This document shows, in pieces, positions 8,766-59,151 of a stretch of 64,000 nucleotides of DNA (position 1 is the first letter of the stretch; every line of letters begins with the position of its first letter). The position numbers and the translations under genes were made by a program. The notes beneath the pieces were generated by a model. It saw only the letters and a program-made list of their open reading frames with translations. It searched no databases and had not been told where the DNA came from. The DNA lies in the NCBI RefSeq assembly GCF_054482525.1, contig NZ_CM137006.1; one strand, given 5' to 3'.

Positions 8766-9359
8766 TCATTTTTTACGTGCCAGCATCGTGGCGAAACGCA
8801 GTTTAATACGATTACCGTTGGCGTCGGTGCGGTGCAGCTCGCCGACGTCTTCATTGTATTTCACCCTCTCCCAGCCTTCGTAATATCGACGTAATTCTCC
8901 CTCTTTGAAGGCAAACGGGAAGCCGACGGTACATGGATAATCAGCGGTATCCATCGCCGCCACAATCAGGTTGTAACCGCCAGGTTTCGTGCAACGTTGC
9001 ATATTGGCAATCAGCCCTGGGATGGTTTTAGCCTCAAGGAACATCAGCACCACAGTCGAAATAATAAAATCGTACTGTCCATCAAATGTGAGGTTATTCA
9101 GATCAACGACCCGGGTGTGTAAATTATCCAGATTTTCAATGGACTTAATGCGCTCGACGTTGGCGATACTCATGGCATTTTTATCCCATGCGTCAACATC
9201 ATAACCATTGGCTGCCAGGTAAAGACTGTTACGACCATTGCCACAGCCCAGATCCAGCGTTTTACCCGGTTTAACCACTTTCACCGCTTCCAGCACTTCA
9301 GAGTGTGTGCGGGTTAATTCATATTTATCAGTAAAATAGTTTTCATCACGAATGATCAT
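8766..9359 (-). CDS. tehB: Tellurite methyltransferase (SAM-dependent)
   Basis: 197-aa ORF with SAM-binding motif [15 protein letters not shown]; start overlaps the tehA stop by 4 nt. Confidence 0.95.
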
Positions 9360-18518: not shown

Positions 18519-18744
18519 CGACCAAAAACCTCTTTGCGTCACATTTTTACAACAATTATGGCAGAGAAGAATAATGCCATTGGAATGAAGAGAGTAACGA
18601 ATGATTAAACTGGCTAAACCGAATGACGAAAAATTCTGGAAAACAGCACGCAATTTCGTCAGGTGATTATTTTCGTCCCTAAGGAAACCACATAGGATGC
18701 TCACGGGTGCCTGAGACTTTCTGTTTTCAGGCTAACCGGGAATC

Positions 18745-18810
18745 AGAAAGACGAAGGCCCCGACCGATATTTCTATCAACCGAGGCCAACGAATGAACCA
18801 AGCAATTCAG
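18745..18810 (-). ncRNA. sokB: SokB antisense RNA; approximate placement
   Basis: Placed by analogy with hok/sok architecture (Sok lies antisense to the hok leader / mok start). Ends not determined from sequence. Confidence 0.3.
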
Positions 18811-18850
18811 ATGTTAGCCTCTTACCCGCCATCCGGCAAGGAAAAAGGCT

Positions 18851-19000
<150 letters not shown>

Positions 19001-19415: not shown

Positions 19416-19479
19416 CTTCCGATGTAGACCCGTATTCTTCGCCTGTACCACGGGTCGGTTTTAGTACAGGCGTTTTCTT
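19416..19479 (+). ncRNA. rydC: RydC small regulatory RNA (Hfq-dependent)
   Basis: cttccgatgtagacccgtattcttcgcctgtaccacgggtcggttttagtacaggcgttttctt matches my recollection of RydC including the 5' seed CUUCCGAUGUAGACCCGU; perfect TATAAT at 19405-19410 just upstream; ends in hairpin plus U-tract; convergent with cybB. Confidence 0.7.
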
Positions 19480-23688: not shown

Positions 23689-23902
23689 GGTTCCTCCTTA
23701 TCGTTCCCTTAAGAATACTGCGCGAGATAATAATGAGAAGCGGAGCACTCTGAAAGGAGGAAGTCGTATTTCCTTAACCGCCACTCCGCAAGCCTGCCAT
23801 ATCTTTTAAGGAAATGCTGTAGATAAACATTATTCATCTTGCAGCTGAGAATTGTATTTTTCTGAATTCCTGAATTTTTGCCCTTACCGTTTTAGAATTA
23901 AT

Positions 23903-23932
23903 AAAAAACCCGGCGCTAAATGCTTACCGGGT
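23903..23932 (-). terminator. Rho-independent terminator downstream of hrpA
   Basis: On the minus strand: hairpin acccgg...ccgggt followed by a T-run (plus-strand aaaaaacccggcgctaaatgcttaccgggtttt). Confidence 0.6.
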
Positions 23933-23959: not shown

Positions 23960-26900
23960 TTAACTGCTAATCTGCTCCATCGCCTGCAAAATACGCTTAT
24001 CTGAAATCGGATAAGGCGTACCAAGTTGTTGAGCGAAGTAACTAACGCGCAACTCTTCTATCATCCAGCGGATCTCTTTCACGTCTTCATCCTCACGACG
24101 TGCGGGCGGCAGTTTGTTGATCCATTGCTGCCACGCCTGCTGGACGTTTTCGACTTTCAGCATCTGAGCACGGTCGCGATGCGGATCAACCGCCAGTTTT
24201 TCCAGTCGTTTTTCAATCGCCTGCAAATAACGCAGCGTGTCGCCCAGCCGTTTAAAACCGTTGCCAGTGACAAAACCGCGATACACCAGCCCGCCCATCT
24301 GCGCTTTAATGTCAGAAAGCCCCAGCGCCATGGTCATATCCACCCGCCCTTTCAGGCGTTTGTTGATATTGAACACTGCCGTAAGGATTTGCTCGACCTG
24401 CTTTGCAATATCCACCACCGTGTCGTTCAGTTCAGCGCGAACTTTTTCATGCAGCGCAGCAAAGCCTTCTTCCGTCCAGACCGGGCCACCATTGGCGTCG
24501 ATCAGTTGATCCACACCGCAGGAGATACAGTCGTCGATCAGCTCCAGCACTTTGCCATACGGGTTAAAGTACAGCCCAAGTTTGGCTTTGTTTGGCAACT
24601 TTTCATGCAAGTATTTGATTGGTGAAGGAATATTCAGCAGCAGTAAACGACGAAGACCGTTCCACATCGCTTGCTTTTGTTCCAGCGGGTTATCAAACAG
24701 TTTGATCGCCACGCTGTCGCGCTCATCCACCAACGCTGGCCACGCCTTCACTTTGTAGTTGCCACGCTTCTGTTCGTAGCTTTCCGGCAGTTGCCCAAAA
24801 CTCCAGATATGTAAGCCGCTCTGCTCGATACCGTCATCCGCCACCGCAGACAGCGTTTCCTGCACTTTGCCTTTCAGAGCATCTTTCAGATCCTGTAATG
24901 AGCGCCCTTCTTTTAGCTTCTTGTTTTTGTCATCCACCACACGGAAGGTGATTTTCAGGTGATCGGGCACCTGATTCCAGTGCCAGTCTTCGCGGTCAAC
25001 GGTGACGCCAGTCATCCGCCGTAGCTCTCGTTCAAGACTGTCGAGCAACGGCAATTCCAGCGGTGTGACGCGGCCTAGAAACGCTTCGGCGTAGTTTGGC
25101 GCGGGCACAAAATTACGGCGTACTGGTTTCGGCAACGATTTAATCAGTGCGATGATCAGTTCACGACGCAGGCCGGGGATCTGCCACTCAAACCCGTTCT
25201 CCTCAACCTGATTAAGCAGCGGCAGTGGAATATGTACGGTCACGCCGTCAGCATCCGCGCCGGGCTCAAACTGATAGCTCAAACGCAGCTTGAGATTGCC
25301 CTGATGCCAGAAGTTCGGGTAATCCAGCTTGCTGATTTTTTCCGCCCCTTCTTTGATCAACATGCTCTTTTCAAAGTTGAGCAAATCAGGCGTATCGCGG
25401 CTGACTTTTTTCCACCAGCTGTCGAAGTGACGTGCGGAGATCACATCGTGGCTGATGCGCTGGTCGTAAAACTCAAACAGCGTTTCGTCATCCACCAGAA
25501 TATCGCGGCGACGTGTTTTGTGTTCCAGTTCTTCCACTTCGGCCCGTAGTTTCAGGTTTTCACGGAAGAATGCATGACGCGTCTGCCAGTCACCTTCCAC
25601 CAGCGCGTGGCGAATAAAGAGTTCACGACATAACGCCGGATCGATCTGGCTGTAGTTGACCTTGCGCGCGGCAACAATCGGCAAGCCATAAACAGTGACT
25701 TTTTCCGTTGCCATCACCGCGCCCTGCGCCCGTTCCCAGTGCGGTTCGCTGTAGGTGCGTTTAATCAAATGCTGAGCAACGGGTTCTACCCATTCAGGGT
25801 CGATACGCGCAGCAATGCGCCCCCACAGGCGGCTGGTTTCTACCAGTTCCGCCACCATTACCCATTTCGGCGGCTTTTTGAATAAACCAGAACCGGGGAA
25901 GATGGAGAAACGCGCGTTACGTGCACCGGTATATTCTTGTTTATCGGCATCTTTCATGCCGATATGGGAAAGCAAACCGGTCAGTAAAGCGATGTGAATT
26001 TCGCGATACTCCGCCGGTTCGCTGTTAACCGGAATGCCAAGTTCTTTCACCACCTGGCGCAACTGGGTGTAGATATCCTGCCATTCGCGCACGCGCAGAT
26101 AGTTGAGATAATCGGTACGACACAGGCGACGGAAGGCGTTGGAAGAAAGCGCCTTTTGCTGCTCGCCAAGATAATTCCACAGATTTACAAACGCGAGGAA
26201 GTCAGACTCTTTGTCGTGGAAGCGACGATGTTTTTCGTCCGATGCCTGCTGTTTGTCCATCGGTCGTTCGCGCGGATCCTGGATGGAGAGCGCGGACGTG
26301 ATAATCATCGCCTCACGCACGCAGCCATGTTTTTGCGCTTCCAGCACCATACGCGCCAGACGAGGATCGACAGGCAACTGCGAGAGCTGGCGACCGAGCG
26401 GCGTCAGTTTATAGGCGCTGGCCTGTTCATCCGTGGTGATCGCGCCCAGCTCTTCGAGCAGACGCACGCCATCCTGGATATTACGTTTATCCGGTGCTTC
26501 GACAAATGGGAACGCGGCGATATCGCCCAACCCCAGCGCAGTCATCTGCAAAATAACCGAGGCCAGGTTGGTACGCAGAATCTCCGGATCGGTAAACTCC
26601 GGGCGCGAAAGGAAATCGTCTTCGGAATAGAGACGAATACAGATCCCTTCGGACACACGACCACAGCGGCCTTTACGCTGATTGGCAGACGCCTGCGAAA
26701 TGGGTTCAATCGGCAAACGCTGCACTTTGGTGCGATAGCTGTAGCGGCTGATACGCGCTGTACCGGGGTCGATAACGTATTTAATCCCCGGTACGGTCAG
26801 CGACGTTTCCGCGACGTTGGTCGCCAGCACAATGCGTCGCCCGCTGTGCGACTGGAACACCCTATTTTGTTCGCTGTTCGAAAGCCGCGCATAAAGCGGC

Positions 26901-27862
26901 AAGATTTCGGTATGCCGCAGATTTAGCTTGTTCAGCGCATCGGCGGTATCGCGAATTTCCCGCTCACCACTCATAAAGATCAGAATGTCGCCTGGGCTTT
27001 CCTGACTCAGTTCGTCTACGGCGTCAAAAATCGCCTGCAACTGATCGCGCTCGGTGTCATCGGCTTCTTCAACAATCGGGCGATAGCGCACTTCCACCGG
27101 ATAGGTCCGACCGGAGACTTCGATAATCGGCGCATTATTAAAGTGGCGCGAAAAGCGTTCCGGGTCGATAGTCGCGGAAGTGATAATGATTTTTAAGTCA
27201 GGACGCCGCGGCAGCAACTCTTTCAAATAGCCGAGCAGAAAATCGATATTCAGGCTGCGTTCGTGCGCTTCGTCAATAATGATGGTGTCGTACTGCATCA
27301 GCAGGCGGTCTTGCTGGATCTCCGCCAGCAGGATACCGTCGGTCATCAGCTTGACCATCGTGTTATCACTTACGTGATCGCTGAAACGCACTTTGTAACC
27401 GATGCAACCACCCGGCTCCGTTTTCAGCTCTTCCGCAATACGGTTCGCCACCGTTCGAGCCGCCAGACGACGCGGCTGGGTATGGCCGATCAGCCCTTTA
27501 ATCCCGCGGCCCAGCTCCATACAGATTTTCGGTAGCTGAGTCGTTTTACCGGAACCCGTTTCCCCGGCGACGATCACCACCTGGTGATCACGAATCGCTT
27601 CGAGAATGTCCTGCTTTTTCTGACTAACCGGCAAATTGTCCGGATAAGTGATTTCCGGTCGTGCCGCTTCACGCAGCAGGACTTTCCCTGCCGCATGGTC
27701 AATCTCTTTCGCCATCTCCTGGAAAATGGCCTGTTGTGCATCAGGATTTTTAACCTTCTTCACGCCGTGCAGACGGCGAGAAGAACGCAGTCTGTCGCGC
27801 AGCATCAGCGAATCCAGCCGCTGCTGCAAGGCCGTAAAGGTCAATTTTTGTTGTTCTGTCAT
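23960..27862 (-). CDS. hrpA: ATP-dependent RNA helicase HrpA (DEAH-box)
   Basis: 1300-aa ORF with Walker A (GETGSGKTTQ) and DEAH box (IIIDEAHERS). Confidence 0.95.
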   Translation of the reverse strand: MTEQQKLTFTALQQRLDSLMLRDRLRSSRRLHGVKKVKNPDAQQAIFQEMAKEIDHAAGKVLLREAARPEITYPDNLPVSQKKQDILEAIRDHQVVIVAGETGSGKTTQLPKICMELGRGIKGLIGHTQPRRLAARTVANRIAEELKTEPGGCIGYKVRFSDHVSDNTMVKLMTDGILLAEIQQDRLLMQYDTIIIDEAHERSLNIDFLLGYLKELLPRRPDLKIIITSATIDPERFSRHFNNAPIIEVSGRTYPVEVRYRPIVEEADDTERDQLQAIFDAVDELSQESPGDILIFMSGEREIRDTADALNKLNLRHTEILPLYARLSNSEQNRVFQSHSGRRIVLATNVAETSLTVPGIKYVIDPGTARISRYSYRTKVQRLPIEPISQASANQRKGRCGRVSEGICIRLYSEDDFLSRPEFTDPEILRTNLASVILQMTALGLGDIAAFPFVEAPDKRNIQDGVRLLEELGAITTDEQASAYKLTPLGRQLSQLPVDPRLARMVLEAQKHGCVREAMIITSALSIQDPRERPMDKQQASDEKHRRFHDKESDFLAFVNLWNYLGEQQKALSSNAFRRLCRTDYLNYLRVREWQDIYTQLRQVVKELGIPVNSEPAEYREIHIALLTGLLSHIGMKDADKQEYTGARNARFSIFPGSGLFKKPPKWVMVAELVETSRLWGRIAARIDPEWVEPVAQHLIKRTYSEPHWERAQGAVMATEKVTVYGLPIVAARKVNYSQIDPALCRELFIRHALVEGDWQTRHAFFRENLKLRAEVEELEHKTRRRDILVDDETLFEFYDQRISHDVISARHFDSWWKKVSRDTPDLLNFEKSMLIKEGAEKISKLDYPNFWHQGNLKLRLSYQFEPGADADGVTVHIPLPLLNQVEENGFEWQIPGLRRELIIALIKSLPKPVRRNFVPAPNYAEAFLGRVTPLELPLLDSLERELRRMTGVTVDREDWHWNQVPDHLKITFRVVDDKNKKLKEGRSLQDLKDALKGKVQETLSAVADDGIEQSGLHIWSFGQLPESYEQKRGNYKVKAWPALVDERDSVAIKLFDNPLEQKQAMWNGLRRLLLLNIPSPIKYLHEKLPNKAKLGLYFNPYGKVLELIDDCISCGVDQLIDANGGPVWTEEGFAALHEKVRAELNDTVVDIAKQVEQILTAVFNINKRLKGRVDMTMALGLSDIKAQMGGLVYRGFVTGNGFKRLGDTLRYLQAIEKRLEKLAVDPHRDRAQMLKVENVQQAWQQWINKLPPARREDEDVKEIRWMIEELRVSYFAQQLGTPYPISDKRILQAMEQISS

Positions 27863-43729: not shown

Positions 43730-44496
43730 TAGCGTCCTTTAAAGTCGGGCGTGCGTTTTTGTAAGAAAGCGGAGATGCCTTCATGACGATCTTCTGTTGC
43801 CGCCAGCAAGGTGAATAACTGTCGCTCCTGGGCAAGTCCGGCTTGCAAAGCCACTTCCTGCGACTGGCGCAGCGCTTGCTTTGCCGCTTGTAAGGCCAGC
43901 GGCGAGTGACGTGCCATTTTCGACGCCAGCTGTAAGGCGTATTCGAGGGTTAAATCGCTGGGGAAGACGTCGCTAACCAGCCCGGCCTGCAGTGCTTGCT
44001 GGGCGGTGATGCTTTCTCCGCTCAGCACCATTTTGCTGGCTAACGATTTACCGACACTACGGATTAAACGTTGCGTTCCGCCTGCGCCCGGCATGATGCC
44101 GAGAGTGATTTCCGGCAACCCAAAACGCGCGCTCTCTCCGGCAACCACCACATCGCACAACAATGCCAGTTCGCAACCCGCACCAAGCGCGTAACCATTG
44201 ACGGCTGCGATGAGTGGTTTGTTAAAGGCCTGCAATCGCGCCCATAGCTGGGGACGTGTATCGTTTAAGGTGGCCGCAAGATCTTTTTCCGCCATTTCGT
44301 TGAGATCGGCCCCGGCGGCAAAAAAGCGTGCATTACCGGTAATCACACAGACCGAAATACTGCTATCGGTAGCCGCAGCTTCCAGTTCATTTACCAGTTG
44401 CGTCAGCAGAGCATTATTCAGTGCATTACGTGCGGCGGGACGGTTAAGGGTCAGTAACAATACTTGTTGCTGACGGCTGACGATCAGTTCGCTCAT
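43729..44496 (-). CDS. paaF: Enoyl-CoA hydratase (2,3-dehydroadipyl-CoA hydratase)
   Basis: 255-aa crotonase-fold ORF. Confidence 0.9.
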   Translation of the reverse strand: MSELIVSRQQQVLLLTLNRPAARNALNNALLTQLVNELEAAATDSSISVCVITGNARFFAAGADLNEMAEKDLAATLNDTRPQLWARLQAFNKPLIAAVNGYALGAGCELALLCDVVVAGESARFGLPEITLGIMPGAGGTQRLIRSVGKSLASKMVLSGESITAQQALQAGLVSDVFPSDLTLEYALQLASKMARHSPLALQAAKQALRQSQEVALQAGLAQERQLFTLLAATEDRHEGISAFLQKRTPDFKGR

Positions 44497-54711: not shown

Positions 54712-55617
54712 ATGAACCCCGCAGTGGATAATGAGTTTCAGCAATGGCTTTCCCAAATCAATCAGGTATGCGGAAATTTTACCGGGCGCCTGCTGACTGA
54801 GCGTTACACGGGTGTACTGGATACGCATTTTGCCAAAGGACTAAAGCTGAGTACCGTGACAACCAACGGGGTGAATTTATCCCGCACCTGGCAGGAAGTA
54901 AAAGGCAGCGACGATGCCTGGTTTTACACCGTTTTTCAGCTTAGTGGTCAGGCAATAATGGAGCAGGATGAGCGTCAGGTGCAGATTGGCGCTGGCGATA
55001 TTACGTTACTCGATGCCTCACGCCCCTGTTCGCTTTACTGGCAGGAGTCTTCTAAACAGATTTCATTACTTTTACCACGCACTCTGCTGGAACAATATTT
55101 TCCCCATCAAAAACCTGTCTGCGCAGAAAGACTGGACGCTGACTTACCTATGGTGCAACTCAGTCATCGCCTGTTGCAGGAGAGCATGAATAACCCGGCA
55201 CTTTCTGAAACAGAAAGTGAAGCTGCGCTACAGGCGATGGTGTGTCTGCTTCGCCCGGTACTTCATCAGCGGGAATCTGTTCAACCTCGGCGTGAACGTC
55301 AGTTTCAAAAAGTGGTTACGTTGATAGACGATAATATTCGCGAAGAGATATTACGCCCGGAGTGGATAGCCGGAGAGACAGGTATGTCAGTACGTAGTTT
55401 GTACCGAATGTTTGCCGATAAAGGTTTGGTGGTCGCGCAATATATTCGTAACCGTCGTCTCGATTTTTGTGCTGATGCGATTCGCCATGCCGCAGATGAT
55501 GAAAAACTGGCAGGCATTGGCTTTCATTGGGGATTTTCCGACCAGAGTCATTTTTCAACGGTATTTAAGCAACGCTTTGGGATGACGCCAGGCGAGTATC
55601 GCCGTAAATTCCGCTAA
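54712..55617 (+). CDS. feaR: AraC-family activator of tynA/feaB
   Basis: 301-aa ORF with C-terminal AraC-type HTH (...GFSDQSHFSTVFKQRFGMTPGEYRRKFR). Confidence 0.9.
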   Translation: MNPAVDNEFQQWLSQINQVCGNFTGRLLTERYTGVLDTHFAKGLKLSTVTTNGVNLSRTWQEVKGSDDAWFYTVFQLSGQAIMEQDERQVQIGAGDITLLDASRPCSLYWQESSKQISLLLPRTLLEQYFPHQKPVCAERLDADLPMVQLSHRLLQESMNNPALSETESEAALQAMVCLLRPVLHQRESVQPRRERQFQKVVTLIDDNIREEILRPEWIAGETGMSVRSLYRMFADKGLVVAQYIRNRRLDFCADAIRHAADDEKLAGIGFHWGFSDQSHFSTVFKQRFGMTPGEYRRKFR

Positions 55618-55788
55618 CTAATTCGCGTTGTGTGTACTGCAACGCCAATTAGTTAAAACAGATATTTGACTACGCATATTTCAGGGCGAAAGGCAATTTG
55701 ACAGGAGCTTTTGAATATTCACCTTGTTTCAGGAAAATAGATCAATCGTTTTCTCCTGTAGCGTTATCCCGATAGTGCGGTTTTGCTA

Positions 55789-56115
55789 TTAAAATTTTCG
55801 CACCCATTTACCGTTTATCCCTTGTACATATTCCCCCGGTTTGGCCCGAGCTACGAGCTTTTGCCCGGCGAGTTTCGCGATATCATCTACCGACACATTA
55901 TTTTGCTTTGCCAGTTGTTGGTAACTCGCTTTACGTTCGGCATTAATGTCGGTTACTAATTTCTCTGTTTCAGCATCCGTTTTCAGCGCAACCAGATAAC
56001 CATAAAATGTTTCACCTACCCGCCCCTGAGTTCTGGCTTCATCCAGAGTCAATGCCATTACATTGCTGCTTACCAGCCCAACAAGAAACGCACAAAGAAG
56101 TAATGTTTTCTTCAT
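55789..56115 (-). CDS. ydbL: Periplasmic DUF1318 protein
   Basis: 108-aa form MKKTLLLCAFLVGLVSSNVMALTLDEARTQGRVGETFYGYLV...; track ORF starts 27 codons upstream. Confidence 0.85.
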   Translation of the reverse strand: MKKTLLLCAFLVGLVSSNVMALTLDEARTQGRVGETFYGYLVALKTDAETEKLVTDINAERKASYQQLAKQNNVSVDDIAKLAGQKLVARAKPGEYVQGINGKWVRKF

Positions 56116-56122
56116 CATCGCC

Positions 56123-56308
56123 TCAGAAAAGATCGCTACGAGTTTCAAGCAGCTCTTCGACATCTTTGTCTGCCTTGATGATGATCTCATGCTCAATTTT
56201 AACGTTCATATTGATAGTGATCGGTTCCTTAGGTGCAGCGACTTCAATGCGAGGCGTACAGCCAACCAGCATAAAAGATGACGTCAACGCAGCCAGTAAA
56301 ATTTTCAT
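56123..56308 (-). CDS. ynbE: Small lipoprotein
   Basis: 61-aa ORF with lipobox MKILLAALTSSFMLVGC; start overlaps the ydbH stop by 4 nt. Confidence 0.85.
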   Translation of the reverse strand: MKILLAALTSSFMLVGCTPRIEVAAPKEPITINMNVKIEHEIIIKADKDVEELLETRSDLF

Positions 56309-58944
56309 TGTTTTTCCTCACACTCTTTTCCTTGCGGACAGTCATTTCCCGGCAGACGTGCGTTCTGCTCCAACCATGCCTGGAGATTATCGCCAAAGCG
56401 TAAACTGCGCCACAGCGTAAAAATATTCTCTTCGTGATGGTAATTAAGGTTTACCGTACCGCTTTTACCATCAACGCGACTGGTACCTGTAATGTTGGCC
56501 TGCATGGTTAATAAACCGAGATTATTTAAATTAATTTTTGTCGATGAACGGCTAATTTCCATATAGCGCAACCAGTTAATTGCTGAACCCGCAGTCATAT
56601 TGTCTTTCACCACCGCATCTGCGGTGTCTTTATCCAGCCGCAAGGTCATTGGCCCGCTATTTGCCAGCCAACCATCTTTCACTATCCATTTTTCGTTGTT
56701 TAGCCATAACGGCAATGCACCACTAAATGCCCCGGACATGGCGAATTGTTTCGGATTGACGGCGCTAACCAGTTCGCTGGATGAGAGATTATTCAGCCGC
56801 AACAGCGCCGGGTCATGTTGCGGCATACGTAATTGTTTCATCAGCACGTTACCGCCTAACACATCGACGCTAACATCAGTCAACAGCAATGGTTCTTCTT
56901 CTGTCCACGGATAACGCCCTTGCAAATCAGCCGTAATATTTTTCGCTGTCACCAGATTAATCACTTCGGCAATTCGCAACGTAACGGGGCCGCGAGTCCC
57001 CAGATGCCAGGCTCCATCGGCAAAACGGAAAGGCAGGACAAAATCGACACCGTTAACTTGATTATCTGGCATCCAGGCACTACCGCCTTTCAACACACCG
57101 TGCCCTCCCGCGCGGAATCCTTGTTCAGGCGCAGCAGAAAATGCAACCTGGGCATACAGTTCGCCATCGCGTAAGTTCATCTTCCAGTCGGGTGGCACCA
57201 GCGGCTGGAATACAGTTAGTGATTGTTTAGGCCACCAGGCGTTACCGCGCAGACGAATACCGTCCCAGCGACCATTTACCCGAACCGGGCCAATCTCACC
57301 AGCATGTAAATCGCCTTTAAAGAGGAAATACGTCGGATCGCGCCCATCGACGCTAAATTTTAAGGTTGATGGCGGTAACACACTGCCGCCAGTGAACAGC
57401 GTTTGCCCGGCGTCCAGTGACAGCGCGCCGCTAAAGGAGGGATGCTGTGCGTCACGTACCCAGACGACGGGCTTGTCGAGAATTAGTCGCGGCTTTTCTA
57501 CCGTCATCGTACCGTATTGTAACTGGTCGAAACCGGTGGAGAGATCGGTCAGCGTAATCGTGCTGTCATGCCACTCACCCTTTCCTGCGACATCCCAGGT
57601 GGCATTCATCGGTGTAAAACTGCCTTTTCCCCAGTAGCGCCACTGCCAGCGGCCAGCGTCAGGGAGAAAATCATTCGCCAGTCCATCCATATGCAGCACG
57701 AAATCGCCCAGTTCATTTTCATGCGCCTGCAAAATGGCCTGCAAACGTCCGTCAACACCACGTTGGGTGACTTTTACACCCGCTAAAGGCCAGCGGATTT
57801 CATCGATGTCCAGCGAATCGATGACTCTTCCCTTCGAACGTAATAACGCGCCTGGCTCAAAGGCCAGCGTTGGGTCAGTCAGACTTCCGCTTAGCTGCGC
57901 AGGTAAGCGGGCATATAAAATGAGATCCGCCTGTTTCGCTTCACCGGTCAGCTGCAAAGGCAGCTGGCTGTTATCCATGCTTAATTTTCCAGGGCCAAAA
58001 TTAAGCACCGCGTTGCCCTTACCCGCTTGCCCCTGGGTCAGCACACTCAGTCGTCCGCTGACCAGAGCGTTCTCAAGCCCTGCCTGCCAGTTGTCGACTT
58101 TGACACCCAGTCGGCCACTCAAAGGAAAACCTGCATACGGCCAGCTCCAGCGACCATCGCTTACGGTCAATTGTTGACGAGTAATTTGCCACGGCAAATC
58201 GAGCAACGGATCGCCGTTATCCTGTGCCAGCACAATCAATTGCCCGCTATTTTCCTGCCAGTCCAGCTCGGCATCCACCAGTGACGGTTCCTGCGGCAAG
58301 TTTAACATCGCAGTAGCATGGCCACTGACAGGAAGTCCATCCGGCACGAGCGGCATAGTAAATTCCCCCACCAGTTTTACCGGTGGCTGATTTTCAAACG
58401 CGGCGACATCCAGTTCGCTGACTGTAAGTTGTTGCCCTTTAAGCTGGCCTTGAAATTTAACTTTTTCGCCCTGATAACGCAGTTGCTGGATATCAGAGGT
58501 TAACGCGAGAGAGAGTTTTCCCTGCCACTCCTGCCAGGGAGAAAAAATCAGTTTATCGATATTGATCCAGGTGTTAGGCAACATGGCCTGCCACTGCGCG
58601 AGGGTTTTTGGAGCGGCAGGCGATTGCTCCGTCTGCGGCAATTTCGCCAGACAAGCAGAATCAAGTTCTACCGTGCCGACGTTCAATAACCAGCGGCTCG
58701 GATGTGAAAGGCTGGCGTTGGTGATATGCGCAAGCTGACAATCTCCCACCAGATAACGGAGATCGGGAATGATTAAACCTTTACGCGTAATGCGTGGGCT
58801 TTCATCTAATGCAATACGTGTCCCGAGCGGTAGCCAGATGCCCGCCAGCGTGGGAACCCACAAGCCGAGCGTCATCAGCAGCGTCAACGGCACAAGAATA
58901 ATCAGTAATAACAGCGCGAGAACGGCTTTATATTTACCCAGCAT
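56305..58944 (-). CDS. ydbH: AsmA-like inner-membrane-anchored periplasmic protein
   Basis: 879-aa ORF with N-terminal TM anchor (MLGKYKAVLALLLLIILVPLTLLMTLGLWVP...). Confidence 0.9.
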   Translation of the reverse strand: MLGKYKAVLALLLLIILVPLTLLMTLGLWVPTLAGIWLPLGTRIALDESPRITRKGLIIPDLRYLVGDCQLAHITNASLSHPSRWLLNVGTVELDSACLAKLPQTEQSPAAPKTLAQWQAMLPNTWINIDKLIFSPWQEWQGKLSLALTSDIQQLRYQGEKVKFQGQLKGQQLTVSELDVAAFENQPPVKLVGEFTMPLVPDGLPVSGHATAMLNLPQEPSLVDAELDWQENSGQLIVLAQDNGDPLLDLPWQITRQQLTVSDGRWSWPYAGFPLSGRLGVKVDNWQAGLENALVSGRLSVLTQGQAGKGNAVLNFGPGKLSMDNSQLPLQLTGEAKQADLILYARLPAQLSGSLTDPTLAFEPGALLRSKGRVIDSLDIDEIRWPLAGVKVTQRGVDGRLQAILQAHENELGDFVLHMDGLANDFLPDAGRWQWRYWGKGSFTPMNATWDVAGKGEWHDSTITLTDLSTGFDQLQYGTMTVEKPRLILDKPVVWVRDAQHPSFSGALSLDAGQTLFTGGSVLPPSTLKFSVDGRDPTYFLFKGDLHAGEIGPVRVNGRWDGIRLRGNAWWPKQSLTVFQPLVPPDWKMNLRDGELYAQVAFSAAPEQGFRAGGHGVLKGGSAWMPDNQVNGVDFVLPFRFADGAWHLGTRGPVTLRIAEVINLVTAKNITADLQGRYPWTEEEPLLLTDVSVDVLGGNVLMKQLRMPQHDPALLRLNNLSSSELVSAVNPKQFAMSGAFSGALPLWLNNEKWIVKDGWLANSGPMTLRLDKDTADAVVKDNMTAGSAINWLRYMEISRSSTKINLNNLGLLTMQANITGTSRVDGKSGTVNLNYHHEENIFTLWRSLRFGDNLQAWLEQNARLPGNDCPQGKECEEKQ

Positions 58945-59151
58945 GGGTAGTTAATATCCTGATTTAGCGAAAAATTAAGCATTCAATACGGGTATTGTGG
59001 CATGTTTAACCGTTCAGTTGAAGGTTGCGCCTACACTAAGCATAGTTGTTGATGAATTTTTCAATATCGCCATGGCTTTCAATTATATTTGAAATTTTGT
59101 AAAATATTTTTAGTAGCTTAAATGTGATTCAACATCACTGGAGAAAGTCTT

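Follow-up and report, generated by a model that had tools for sequence, protein, structure and literature searches.

The three open reading frames that fill positions 55789-58944 of the 64,000-nucleotide stretch of DNA analysed here (the window) are the ordinary Escherichia coli ydbH-ynbE-ydbL operon, which is already characterised and for which the stop/start overlap, the translational coupling, the YdbH-YnbE contact and the structure of YdbL have all been published. Taken as a whole, the locus is almost certainly this known operon, with ydbH and ynbE coupled in translation and with products that build an intermembrane bridge. Its sequence is a 100% match to that of E. coli PCN033, it was found in 5409 of the 5426 complete E. 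coli genomes, and the annotations of both PCN033 and K-12 name its genes ydbH, ynbE and ydbL. It has long been asked how phospholipids travel to the Gram-negative outer membrane, and the operon encodes one of three redundant candidate bridges; the window adds nothing to the published picture, and the value of our analysis is the modest one of a comparative note on the start codon of ydbL and on its junction with ynbE. The original prediction had proposed a three-gene unit at this span without naming a strand; the reading frames are indeed present, all of them on the minus strand (Table 1). Plus-strand antisense reading frames, such as those at 56007-56420 (137 aa) and 57734-58177 (147 aa), were taken as incidental to the long genes of the minus strand.

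Table 1. Genes, protein segments, junction elements and candidate transcription signals of the ydbH-ynbE-ydbL locus, in coordinates of the window.
Feature	Position	Strand	Description
Candidate sigma-70 promoter	59056..59082	-	TTGAAA-15-AAAAAT; ldhA/ydbH divergent spacer; hexamers from PMC3946193
ydbH CDS	56305..58944	-	879 aa; inner-membrane-anchored AsmA-like/repeating β-groove protein; PF11739, NF007971
YdbH N-terminal hydrophobic anchor	58855..58926	-	single; about residues 7-30, AVLALLLLIILVPLTLLMTLGLWV; Kyte-Doolittle
Shine-Dalgarno motif for ynbE	56315..56319	-	GAGGA, within the ydbH 3' end; GAGG-to-ATG 7 nt
ydbH/ynbE stop/start overlap	56305..56308	-	ATGA; 4 nt common to both CDSs; mediates termination-reinitiation in K-12 (PMC6728339)
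ynbE CDS	56123..56308	-	61 aa; outer-membrane lipoprotein capping the YdbH groove; PF13617; function from PMC11126948
YnbE signal peptide and lipobox	56258..56308	-	M1-C17; L14-V15-G16-C17; +2 is Thr (T18); from the translation
ynbE stop, ydbL Shine-Dalgarno motif and tandem starts	56113..56125	-	TGAGGCGATGATG; GAGG overlaps the stop; two in-frame ATGs
ydbL CDS	55789..56115	-	108 aa (109 aa if start 56118); periplasmic chaperone-like DUF1318 protein; PF07027
YdbL signal peptide	56053..56115	-	residues 1-21; cleavage after V-M-A; PDB chain starts at residue 22
Inverted repeat between convergent feaR and ydbL	55618..55652	.	13 bp; possible shared transcript-end hairpin

The allele in the window is that of K-12 with allelic differences only. 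The K-12 operon (b1381-b1383) has identical gene lengths (879, 61 and 108 aa), the same ATGA overlap and the same 7-nt spacer, and it is flanked by ldhA and hslJ at one end and by feaR at the other, in matching order and relative orientation. At the nucleotide level, ydbH is 97.7%, ynbE 100% (186/186 nt) and ydbL 99.4% identical to the K-12 genes. The 61 nucleotide changes in ydbH come with eight amino acid changes (V181A, A196T, T213M, R241Q, S356T, T361A, I493V and D807N), and YdbL carries the single substitution A55T. The ynbE/ydbL spacer differs by one base (TGAGGcG in the window vs TGAGGtG in K-12), whereas the ydbH/ynbE junction is identical, with both the ATGA overlap and the Shine-Dalgarno motif of ynbE unchanged.

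The product identities first proposed, an AsmA-like protein, a small lipoprotein and a DUF1318 protein, are borne out by profile matches far above the cutoffs. YdbH matches PF11739 over residues 14-862, which cover positions 1-892 of the 893 in the profile (E = 5e-291, 969 bits, cutoff 26.3), and the NCBIfam equivalog NF007971 with 1398.7 bits (cutoff 824). Its 19-residue Kyte-Doolittle windows above 1.6 are confined to the first ∼40 residues and highest at residue 8 (2.95), and an inner-membrane anchor has been described for the protein (PMC11126948), whose AlphaFold models in the same work have a repeating β-groove with a continuous hydrophobic groove. Residues 26-59 of YnbE match the whole 34-position profile of PF13617 (E = 3e-16, 59.3 bits, cutoff 25.8), and its lipobox cysteine is kept in all eight relatives inspected. 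Lipoproteins with Asp at position +2 stay in the inner membrane, and YnbE has Thr, a non-Asp residue, at this position. YnbE is described as an outer-membrane lipoprotein in PMC11126948, where membrane fractionation is among the methods used. The protein ends in ...RSDLF, with the final F present in every relative inspected, and F61 has been named in connection with the YdbL interaction (bioRxiv 10.64898/2026.03.16.712125).

YdbL matches PF07027 (DUF1318; E = 2.8e-31, 108.3 bits, cutoff 27), and its residues 22-108 match chain A of PDB 28oj (E = 3.1e-52); the same residues are given as the mature protein, together with a SignalP result, in bioRxiv 10.64898/2026.03.16.712125. In an alignment of 62 sequences, residues G31, G39, N58, R61 and W104 are invariant and E35 and Y40 nearly so. 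All of these occur in the protein encoded in the window, E35, Y40, N58 and W104 being invariant or at least 90% conserved, and the residues found to be functionally important by mutagenesis (bioRxiv 10.64898/2026.03.16.712125) overlap this conserved set. No NCBIfam model matched YnbE or YdbL, and the PDB holds no entry for YdbH or YnbE.

As first read, the coding sequences of ydbH (56305-58944) and ynbE (56123-56308) have four nucleotides in common, at a junction that reads ...GAG GAA AAA CAA TGA and is overlapped by ATG AAA ATT (caATGAaa); the same ATGA overlap is named explicitly in PMC11126948. Since paaE/paaF and tehA/tehB, also in the window, have 4-nt ATGA overlaps too, this is a common operon feature and no anomaly. 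What sets the junction on firm ground is the work of Huber et al. (2019; PMC6728339), who found strict, Shine-Dalgarno-dependent termination-reinitiation coupling at E. coli ydbH/ynbE, with ynbE translation extremely low or undetectable if ribosomes were kept from the overlap, and with a motif that is “strictly essential for reinitiation”. The fragment corresponding to theirs, from -99 to +30, differs between the window and K-12 in one base, at position -65, and the co-translation of ydbH and ynbE implied by the original prediction is thus backed by a direct measurement in E. coli. As demonstrated by experiment in K-12, ribosomes that end ydbH at the ATGA would reinitiate on ynbE by way of the GAGGA within ydbH, and ynbE output would thereby be tied to ydbH translation. 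RNA folds at the ynbE and ydbL start regions had no excess stability relative to shuffled sequence (z = +1.23 for the -99 to +30 region at ydbH/ynbE, and z = +0.03), so that the RNA-structure part of the published explanation of coupling gains no independent support here. On these folds, we do not favour a structural obstacle to de novo initiation.

The second junction reads TTC TGA GGCG ATG ATG AAG and offers two starts for ydbL. The second ATG (56115; 108 aa, as annotated in K-12 for b1383) leaves a gap of 7 nt to ynbE, and the first (56118; 109 aa, as given by PGAP/RefSeq for PCN033) a gap of 4 nt. Counted from the GAGG, which overlaps the stop codon of ynbE, the first ATG is 2 nt away and the second 5 nt. 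A layout of stop, GGAG, about 5 nt and ATG repeats in relatives that we compared (L003, L007 and L009), and we therefore regard the 108-aa start as the better supported one; with it, the 7-nt distance originally reported is true, and with the start at 56118 it becomes 4 nt.

Our sample of junctions is small and hand-picked, comprising 12 representative YdbL homologues. The order ydbH-ynbE-ydbL is kept in relatives whose YdbL is 36-59% identical, with ydbH-ynbE distances of -4, -4, -4, -8, -14, +2, +9 and +43 nt. The ynbE-ydbL gaps are tight in some (7, 9, 9, 9, 9, 11 and 12 nt) and wider in others (30, 32, 37 and 47 nt), and L019, with an ambiguous ydbL start, gives either 11 or 32 nt. Tight ynbE/ydbL spacing is thus not universal, three or four lineages of the sample having 30-47 nt between these genes; the tight arrangement of the operon is nonetheless kept in distant relatives, and so is a real, selected feature. 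The layout that we associate below with a dosage device, in which the stop abuts GGAG, the start follows ∼5 nt on and the spacer measures 7-12 nt, was seen in lineages with YdbL 36-59% identical.

Because its GAGG overlaps the ynbE stop, ydbL, 7 nt on, probably owes its translation to the ribosomes that terminate on ynbE or to weak local initiation, and the stop-abutting GGAG of several lineages suggests coupling at ynbE/ydbL as well. On these sequence grounds we tentatively propose, at a little under an even chance, that the ynbE/ydbL junction is a conserved dosage device in which termination-reinitiation would fix a low YdbL:YnbE ratio; this ratio matters, since excess YdbL is lethal when cells rely on the bridge. 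It is also possible, if rather doubtful, that only ydbH and ynbE are coupled, and that ydbL has a de novo initiation of its own at its GAGG, independent of ynbE and weak by design, with its abundance trimmed by DegP. The ynbE and ydbL coding sequences do not overlap, the 30-47 nt gaps of L006, L011, L012 and L017 are unfavourable to reinitiation, free YdbL is degraded by DegP in vitro (bioRxiv 10.64898/2026.03.16.712125), and coupling of ynbE and ydbL is put forward in PMC11126948 as no more than one possible explanation; yet E. coli and the relatives L003, L007, L009 and L016 have GGAG right after the stop and a start 7-9 nt away, which would seat the terminating ribosome on both the Shine-Dalgarno motif and the start, and a C-terminal FLAG on ynbE seemed to lower YdbL function (PMC11126948).

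The function of the products is known from work on E. coli. Kumar, Davis and Ruiz (2024; PMC11126948) used genetics and in vivo cross-linking to identify inner-membrane YdbH and the outer-membrane lipoprotein YnbE as an intermembrane bridge. Their evidence includes fractionation, cross-links between YdbH and YnbE, and the synthetic lethality of ynbE with tamB and with yhdP; they also reported that YnbE multimerisation is restrained by YdbL and that YdbL dosage has effects. De'Ath et al. (2026; bioRxiv 10.64898/2026.03.16.712125) solved the crystal structure of YdbL (PDB 28OJ), traced its YnbE interface to the C-terminal helix of the lipoprotein and found YdbL to be degraded by DegP. Growth and outer-membrane lipid homeostasis require YhdP, TamB and YdbH, which act redundantly (PMC8593681). 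The association of the three genes with lipid transport between the membranes, pointed to in the original prediction, accordingly agrees with these three studies, the transport itself resting on genetics, and the operon mapping and pull-down proposed along with it have, in effect, already been done in the literature.

In the resulting picture, a single N-terminal helix holds YdbH in the inner membrane while its hydrophobic β-groove reaches into the periplasm; YnbE carries its lipid on Cys17, is sorted to the outer membrane and completes the bridge through β-strand augmentation, extending the groove at its C-terminal end with strands of its own, at a contact that has been cross-linked; and periplasmic YdbL binds the C-terminal helix of YnbE and curbs its runaway multimerisation, being helpful at operon-set levels and toxic in excess. 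The bridge is proposed, on a genetic basis, to carry phospholipids between the two membranes, redundantly with YhdP and TamB. Losing TamB, YhdP and YdbH together is lethal, and the hydrophobic groove is continuous and homologous to that of eukaryotic bridge-like lipid-transfer proteins (PMC11126948), both of which make it improbable that the bridge, while real, has a main task other than bulk phospholipid transport, such as tethering or contact between the membranes, the carriage of another lipid species or the sensing of outer-membrane lipid status. In favour of such a role, PMC11126948 itself notes that lipid transport by YdbH/YnbE is without biochemical evidence, no transport assay existing, and that the predicted groove of YdbH (about 180 Å), even with one YnbE added, falls short of the periplasmic width; moreover, ydbH alone, at its native level, only partly replaces YhdP and TamB, the tamB yhdP double mutant being mucoid and sensitive to MacConkey agar.

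Papers on the operon state that ydbH, ynbE and ydbL are co-transcribed; the promoter probably lies in the spacer between ldhA and ydbH. A genomic SELEX site of the RpoD holoenzyme has been assigned to “ydbH--ydbL” (PMC3946193), and the hexamers proposed there occur in the window, with a poor -10 hexamer and a spacer of 15 nt; our sigma-70 consensus scan did not call this candidate. Inspection by eye gave no convincing match to a sigma-E-type promoter upstream of ydbH, and Rfam had no match in or near the operon. At the other end, the putative hairpin between feaR and ydbL is prominent in the fold of the minus strand of 55590-55800 (MFE -56.4 kcal/mol, z = -3.57) and forms a perfect 15-bp stem in K-12; a U-tract is missing from both strands, however, and the hairpin was not among the calls of the terminator scan. 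Within the operon, the consensus scan found 4 promoter-like sites vs 4.1 expected from shuffled sequence, and neither promoter- nor terminator-like sites were in excess. That the genes are merely adjacent and independently expressed, from internal promoters and by de novo initiation at each ribosome-binding site, with the overlap reflecting genome compaction, is very unlikely and for ydbH/ynbE already largely refuted: ATGA overlaps are common and not always coupling (bioBF was uncoupled in PMC6728339), and two weak minus-strand promoter-like matches lie in the operon (56816-56788 and 55924-55897), but such matches are at the level of shuffled sequence, ynbE is barely translated without upstream ribosomes at the overlap (PMC6728339), the level of YnbE-FLAG falls without ydbH (PMC11126948), and tight junctions are kept across distant lineages.

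Several known systems resemble the operon in its junctions and in its products. The E. coli pairs hyfHI, astDB and menDH likewise combine a 4-nt overlap with a Shine-Dalgarno motif within the upstream gene and, like ydbH/ynbE, which was itself among the pairs tested, need an upstream ribosome for downstream translation (PMC6728339); ynbE/ydbL, with its 7-nt gap, differs from them in having no overlap. Among the products, YdbH shares with its E. coli AsmA-like paralogues YhdP and TamB, the latter in the TamB-TamA system, an inner-membrane anchor followed by a long periplasmic β-groove, and is redundant with them (PMC8593681, PMC11126948). The three differ in how they would reach the outer membrane: TamB docks on the Omp85 β-barrel TamA, and YhdP is said to have the length to cross the envelope by itself (bioRxiv 10.64898/2026.03.16.712125), whereas the shorter YdbH uses YnbE, a lipoprotein of 45 residues when mature, together with the periplasmic modulator YdbL, two proteins whose genes lie in its own operon. 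In a passage of PMC11126948, AsmA-like proteins are described as ancestors of the repeating β-groove superfamily, and according to the literature the likeness extends to the eukaryotic VPS13 and ATG2 family, whose members, as YdbH does, offer a bridge-like hydrophobic groove across two membranes; in contrast to these, the bridge in bacteria crosses the periplasm and has a separate lipoprotein as the subunit that completes it.

Three genes read in the same direction, ydbH, ynbE and ydbL, occupy exactly 55789-58944 on the minus strand, as seen in both the ORF list and the sequence; the original prediction had left their strand unmentioned. The first junction reads caATGAaa, and its four bases 56305-56308 are common to the ydbH and ynbE coding sequences, which confirms the predicted 4-nt overlap. 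A GAGGA motif lies within ydbH upstream of the ynbE start, with 7 nt from GAGG to ATG. The second junction reads TTC-TGA-GGCG-ATG-ATG and places ynbE either 4 nt from the first of two tandem ydbL starts (109 aa, as annotated by RefSeq/PGAP for E. coli PCN033, whose locus is identical) or 7 nt from the second (108 aa, as annotated in K-12). Because 2 nt separate the first ATG, and 5 nt the second, from the GAGG that overlaps the stop codon of ynbE, and because relatives show the same stop-GGAG-5 nt-ATG layout, the gap of 7 nt, which is also the one originally proposed and that of the K-12 annotation, is the better supported figure. An ATGA overlap is a standard hallmark of operons and not remarkable in itself, four-nucleotide overlaps being the most common kind (Huber et al., 2019; PMC6728339), and the one between ydbH and ynbE has been directly tested. 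Further ATGA overlaps of 4 nt occur in the window at paaE/paaF (about 44493-44496) and tehA/tehB (about 9356-9359), and overlaps of 1 nt at paaF/paaG and paaI/paaJ.

Coordinates of the operon genes and associated features (window numbering, except for the last row, which is numbered within its own locus)
Feature	Coordinates	Strand	Description
ydbH	56305-58944	minus	879-aa ORF
ynbE	56123-56308	minus	61-aa ORF
ydbL	ends 55789	minus	longest ORF form from TTG 56196; adjacent ATGs 56118 and 56115
TTGAAA / AAAAAT hexamers	59082-59056	minus	hexamers of PMC3946193, present in the window
Inverted repeat	55618-55652		between convergent feaR and ydbL, directly after the feaR stop codon
ynbE ORF remnant, locus L019	1764-1856		between ydbH and ydbL; MINLNVKIEHEIRVRIDKELDQVFDDAELF

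The 3.56-kb segment, annotated as ydbH, ynbE and ydbL between ldhA and feaR, matches E. coli PCN033, SCU-102 and 19KM1776 with 100% identity; of 5426 complete E. coli genomes, 5409 contain it at a coverage of ≥80%. Over about 63.3 kb the window differs from PCN033 by 6 mismatches, apart from one IS200 difference, a ~705-bp IS200/IS605 tnpA insertion between hrpA and ydcF that PCN033 carries and the window does not (site ~23,900-23,905). Relative to K-12, ydbH has 97.7% nucleotide identity (61 of 2640 nt differ, or 2.3%, with 8 amino acid changes), ydbL differs at 2 nt (A55T) and the spacer at one base, while ynbE is identical in all 186 nt. At the divergence rate of ydbH, ynbE should show about 4 differences; that it shows none could be chance, or a sign that this small gene and its junctions are under strong constraint.

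The products were predicted to be an AsmA-like protein, a small lipoprotein and a periplasmic DUF1318 protein, and Pfam bears this out, with matches to PF11739 (YdbH-like, full length, E = 5e-291), PF13617 (YnbE-like lipoprotein, E = 3e-16) and PF07027 (DUF1318, E = 2.8e-31). NCBIfam assigns the 879-aa protein as a YdbH equivalog, and residues 22-108 of YdbL match PDB 28oj ("probable chaperone-like protein YdbL"); the PDB search returned no entry for YdbH or YnbE. The predicted single N-terminal hydrophobic helix of YdbH, the lipobox of YnbE (LVGC, followed by Thr) and the 21-residue signal peptide of YdbL, ending in VMA, fit the published topology. The length of 869 aa given for YdbH in PMC11126948, as opposed to 879 aa in the window and the K-12 annotation, is probably a typographical slip, since ydbH has no start codon 10 codons in.

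A full HMMER scan with YdbL yielded 1248 clusters (50% identity) at E ≤0.001, and we examined which genes surround 12 representatives sharing 36-59% identity with the YdbL of the window. In this small sample, which rests on automatic gene calls, a ynbE-like gene lies directly upstream of ydbL in 11 of 12 loci, including one (L019) where the gene finder missed it and where the ORF remnant is either a pseudogene or a small gene whose 5' end is disrupted. In the twelfth, that of the double-DUF1318 protein P0250, an 88-aa gene without a Pfam match overlaps the start by 4 nt. Wherever the sequence suffices, ydbH directly precedes the pair, the exceptions being L006, where the 110 nt of contig before ynbE contain no called gene, and L012, a metagenome-assembled genome of 70% GC where amt and P-II genes precede it. 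The distance between ydbH and ynbE is -4 in the window and in two other lineages, and otherwise -8, -14, +2, +9 or +43. Gaps between ynbE and ydbL are either tight (7, 9, 9, 9, 9, 11 and 12), with GGAG directly after the stop codon, or wider (30, 32, 37 and 47), that of L019 being either 11 or 32 according to which ydbL start is taken. The lipobox cysteine and terminal phenylalanine of YnbE are kept in every relative inspected. These comparisons suffice to show an arrangement whose compactness is conserved rather than accidental, with the ynbE-ydbL pair as its most constant module.

In L012 (4762-5366; GCA_966191115.1), the pair has no adjacent ydbH and is flanked by the ammonium transporter and P-II genes upstream and by rhomboid and Pup-ligase genes downstream; some lineages may keep the pair independently of ydbH. 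Three DUF1318 proteins of 219-226 aa (P0250, P0256 and P0260) have two matched stretches, i.e., tandem-duplicated YdbL-like domains. Rare calls of 155-173 aa (P0004-P0007, clusters of 1-4 sequences) combine PF13617 and PF07027 as YnbE-YdbL fusions; as ynbE and ydbL are in different frames in the window, frameshift or assembly errors probably account for them. An hrpA-like helicase gene directly follows ydbL in L004 and L016, and lies a few genes after it in L017, where the first of these is azoR-like. In the window, ~28 kb separate the end of ydbL from hrpA (23960-27862), with feaRB, tynA, the paa cluster, pdxI, ydbD, ynbABCD and azoR in between; this E. coli block appears to have been inserted into a neighbourhood that is older.

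The ends of the transcript are placed by inference. An RpoD-holoenzyme site (TTGAAA-15-AAAAAT) has been assigned to "ydbH--ydbL" in the ldhA/ydbH spacer (Shimada et al., 2014; PMC3946193); our scan for consensus promoters and terminators yielded no site above shuffle expectation, RNA folds around both start sites were unremarkable, and Rfam gave no match near the operon. Elsewhere in the window, Rfam matched the sok antitoxin RNA (18705-18856, plus strand, 110.6 bits) and the RydC sRNA (19416-19479, plus strand, 92.5 bits), in the region where PCN033 is annotated with hokB and cybB. The repeat behind feaR forms a strong hairpin (regional z = -3.6), whose stem is a perfect 15 bp in K-12 and 13 bp with one mismatch in the window; as neither side carries a U-tract, it is no more than a possible terminator.

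The operon organisation is stated by the authors of the functional studies, and the co-translation proposed for ydbH and ynbE has been measured. Theirs is among five native E. coli ATGA pairs chosen by Huber et al. (2019), whose fragment (-99..+30) differs from the window by one base; stopping the upstream ribosomes early left very little or no detectable ynbE translation, and the Shine-Dalgarno motif was strictly essential for reinitiation (PMC6728339). The lower YnbE levels without ydbH have likewise been put down to ATGA coupling (Kumar, Davis and Ruiz, 2024; PMC11126948). Coupling between ynbE and ydbL we infer. YhdP, TamB and YdbH act redundantly, yet as a set they are essential (Ruiz, Davis and Kumar, 2021; PMC8593681). 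Synthetic lethality with tamB and yhdP applies to ynbE as it does to ydbH; YnbE multimerises, the YdbH C-terminus cross-links with it in vivo, consistent with β-strand augmentation, and YdbL is dispensable but dosage-sensitive (PMC11126948). De'Ath et al. (2026; bioRxiv 10.64898/2026.03.16.712125) solved the structure of YdbL, mapped its binding to the C-terminal helix of YnbE and found free YdbL to be degraded by DegP. Coupling at the first junction, the contacts of YnbE with YdbH and YdbL, and the genetic redundancy are thus established. The suggested link of the trio to lipid transport between the membranes is also found in this literature (PMC8593681, PMC11126948), where biochemical evidence for transport is described as lacking (PMC11126948), and transport by the bridge itself is presumed. 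The original observation is therefore confirmed and its interpretation supported, each element of the latter being already published for a system that is known in detail.
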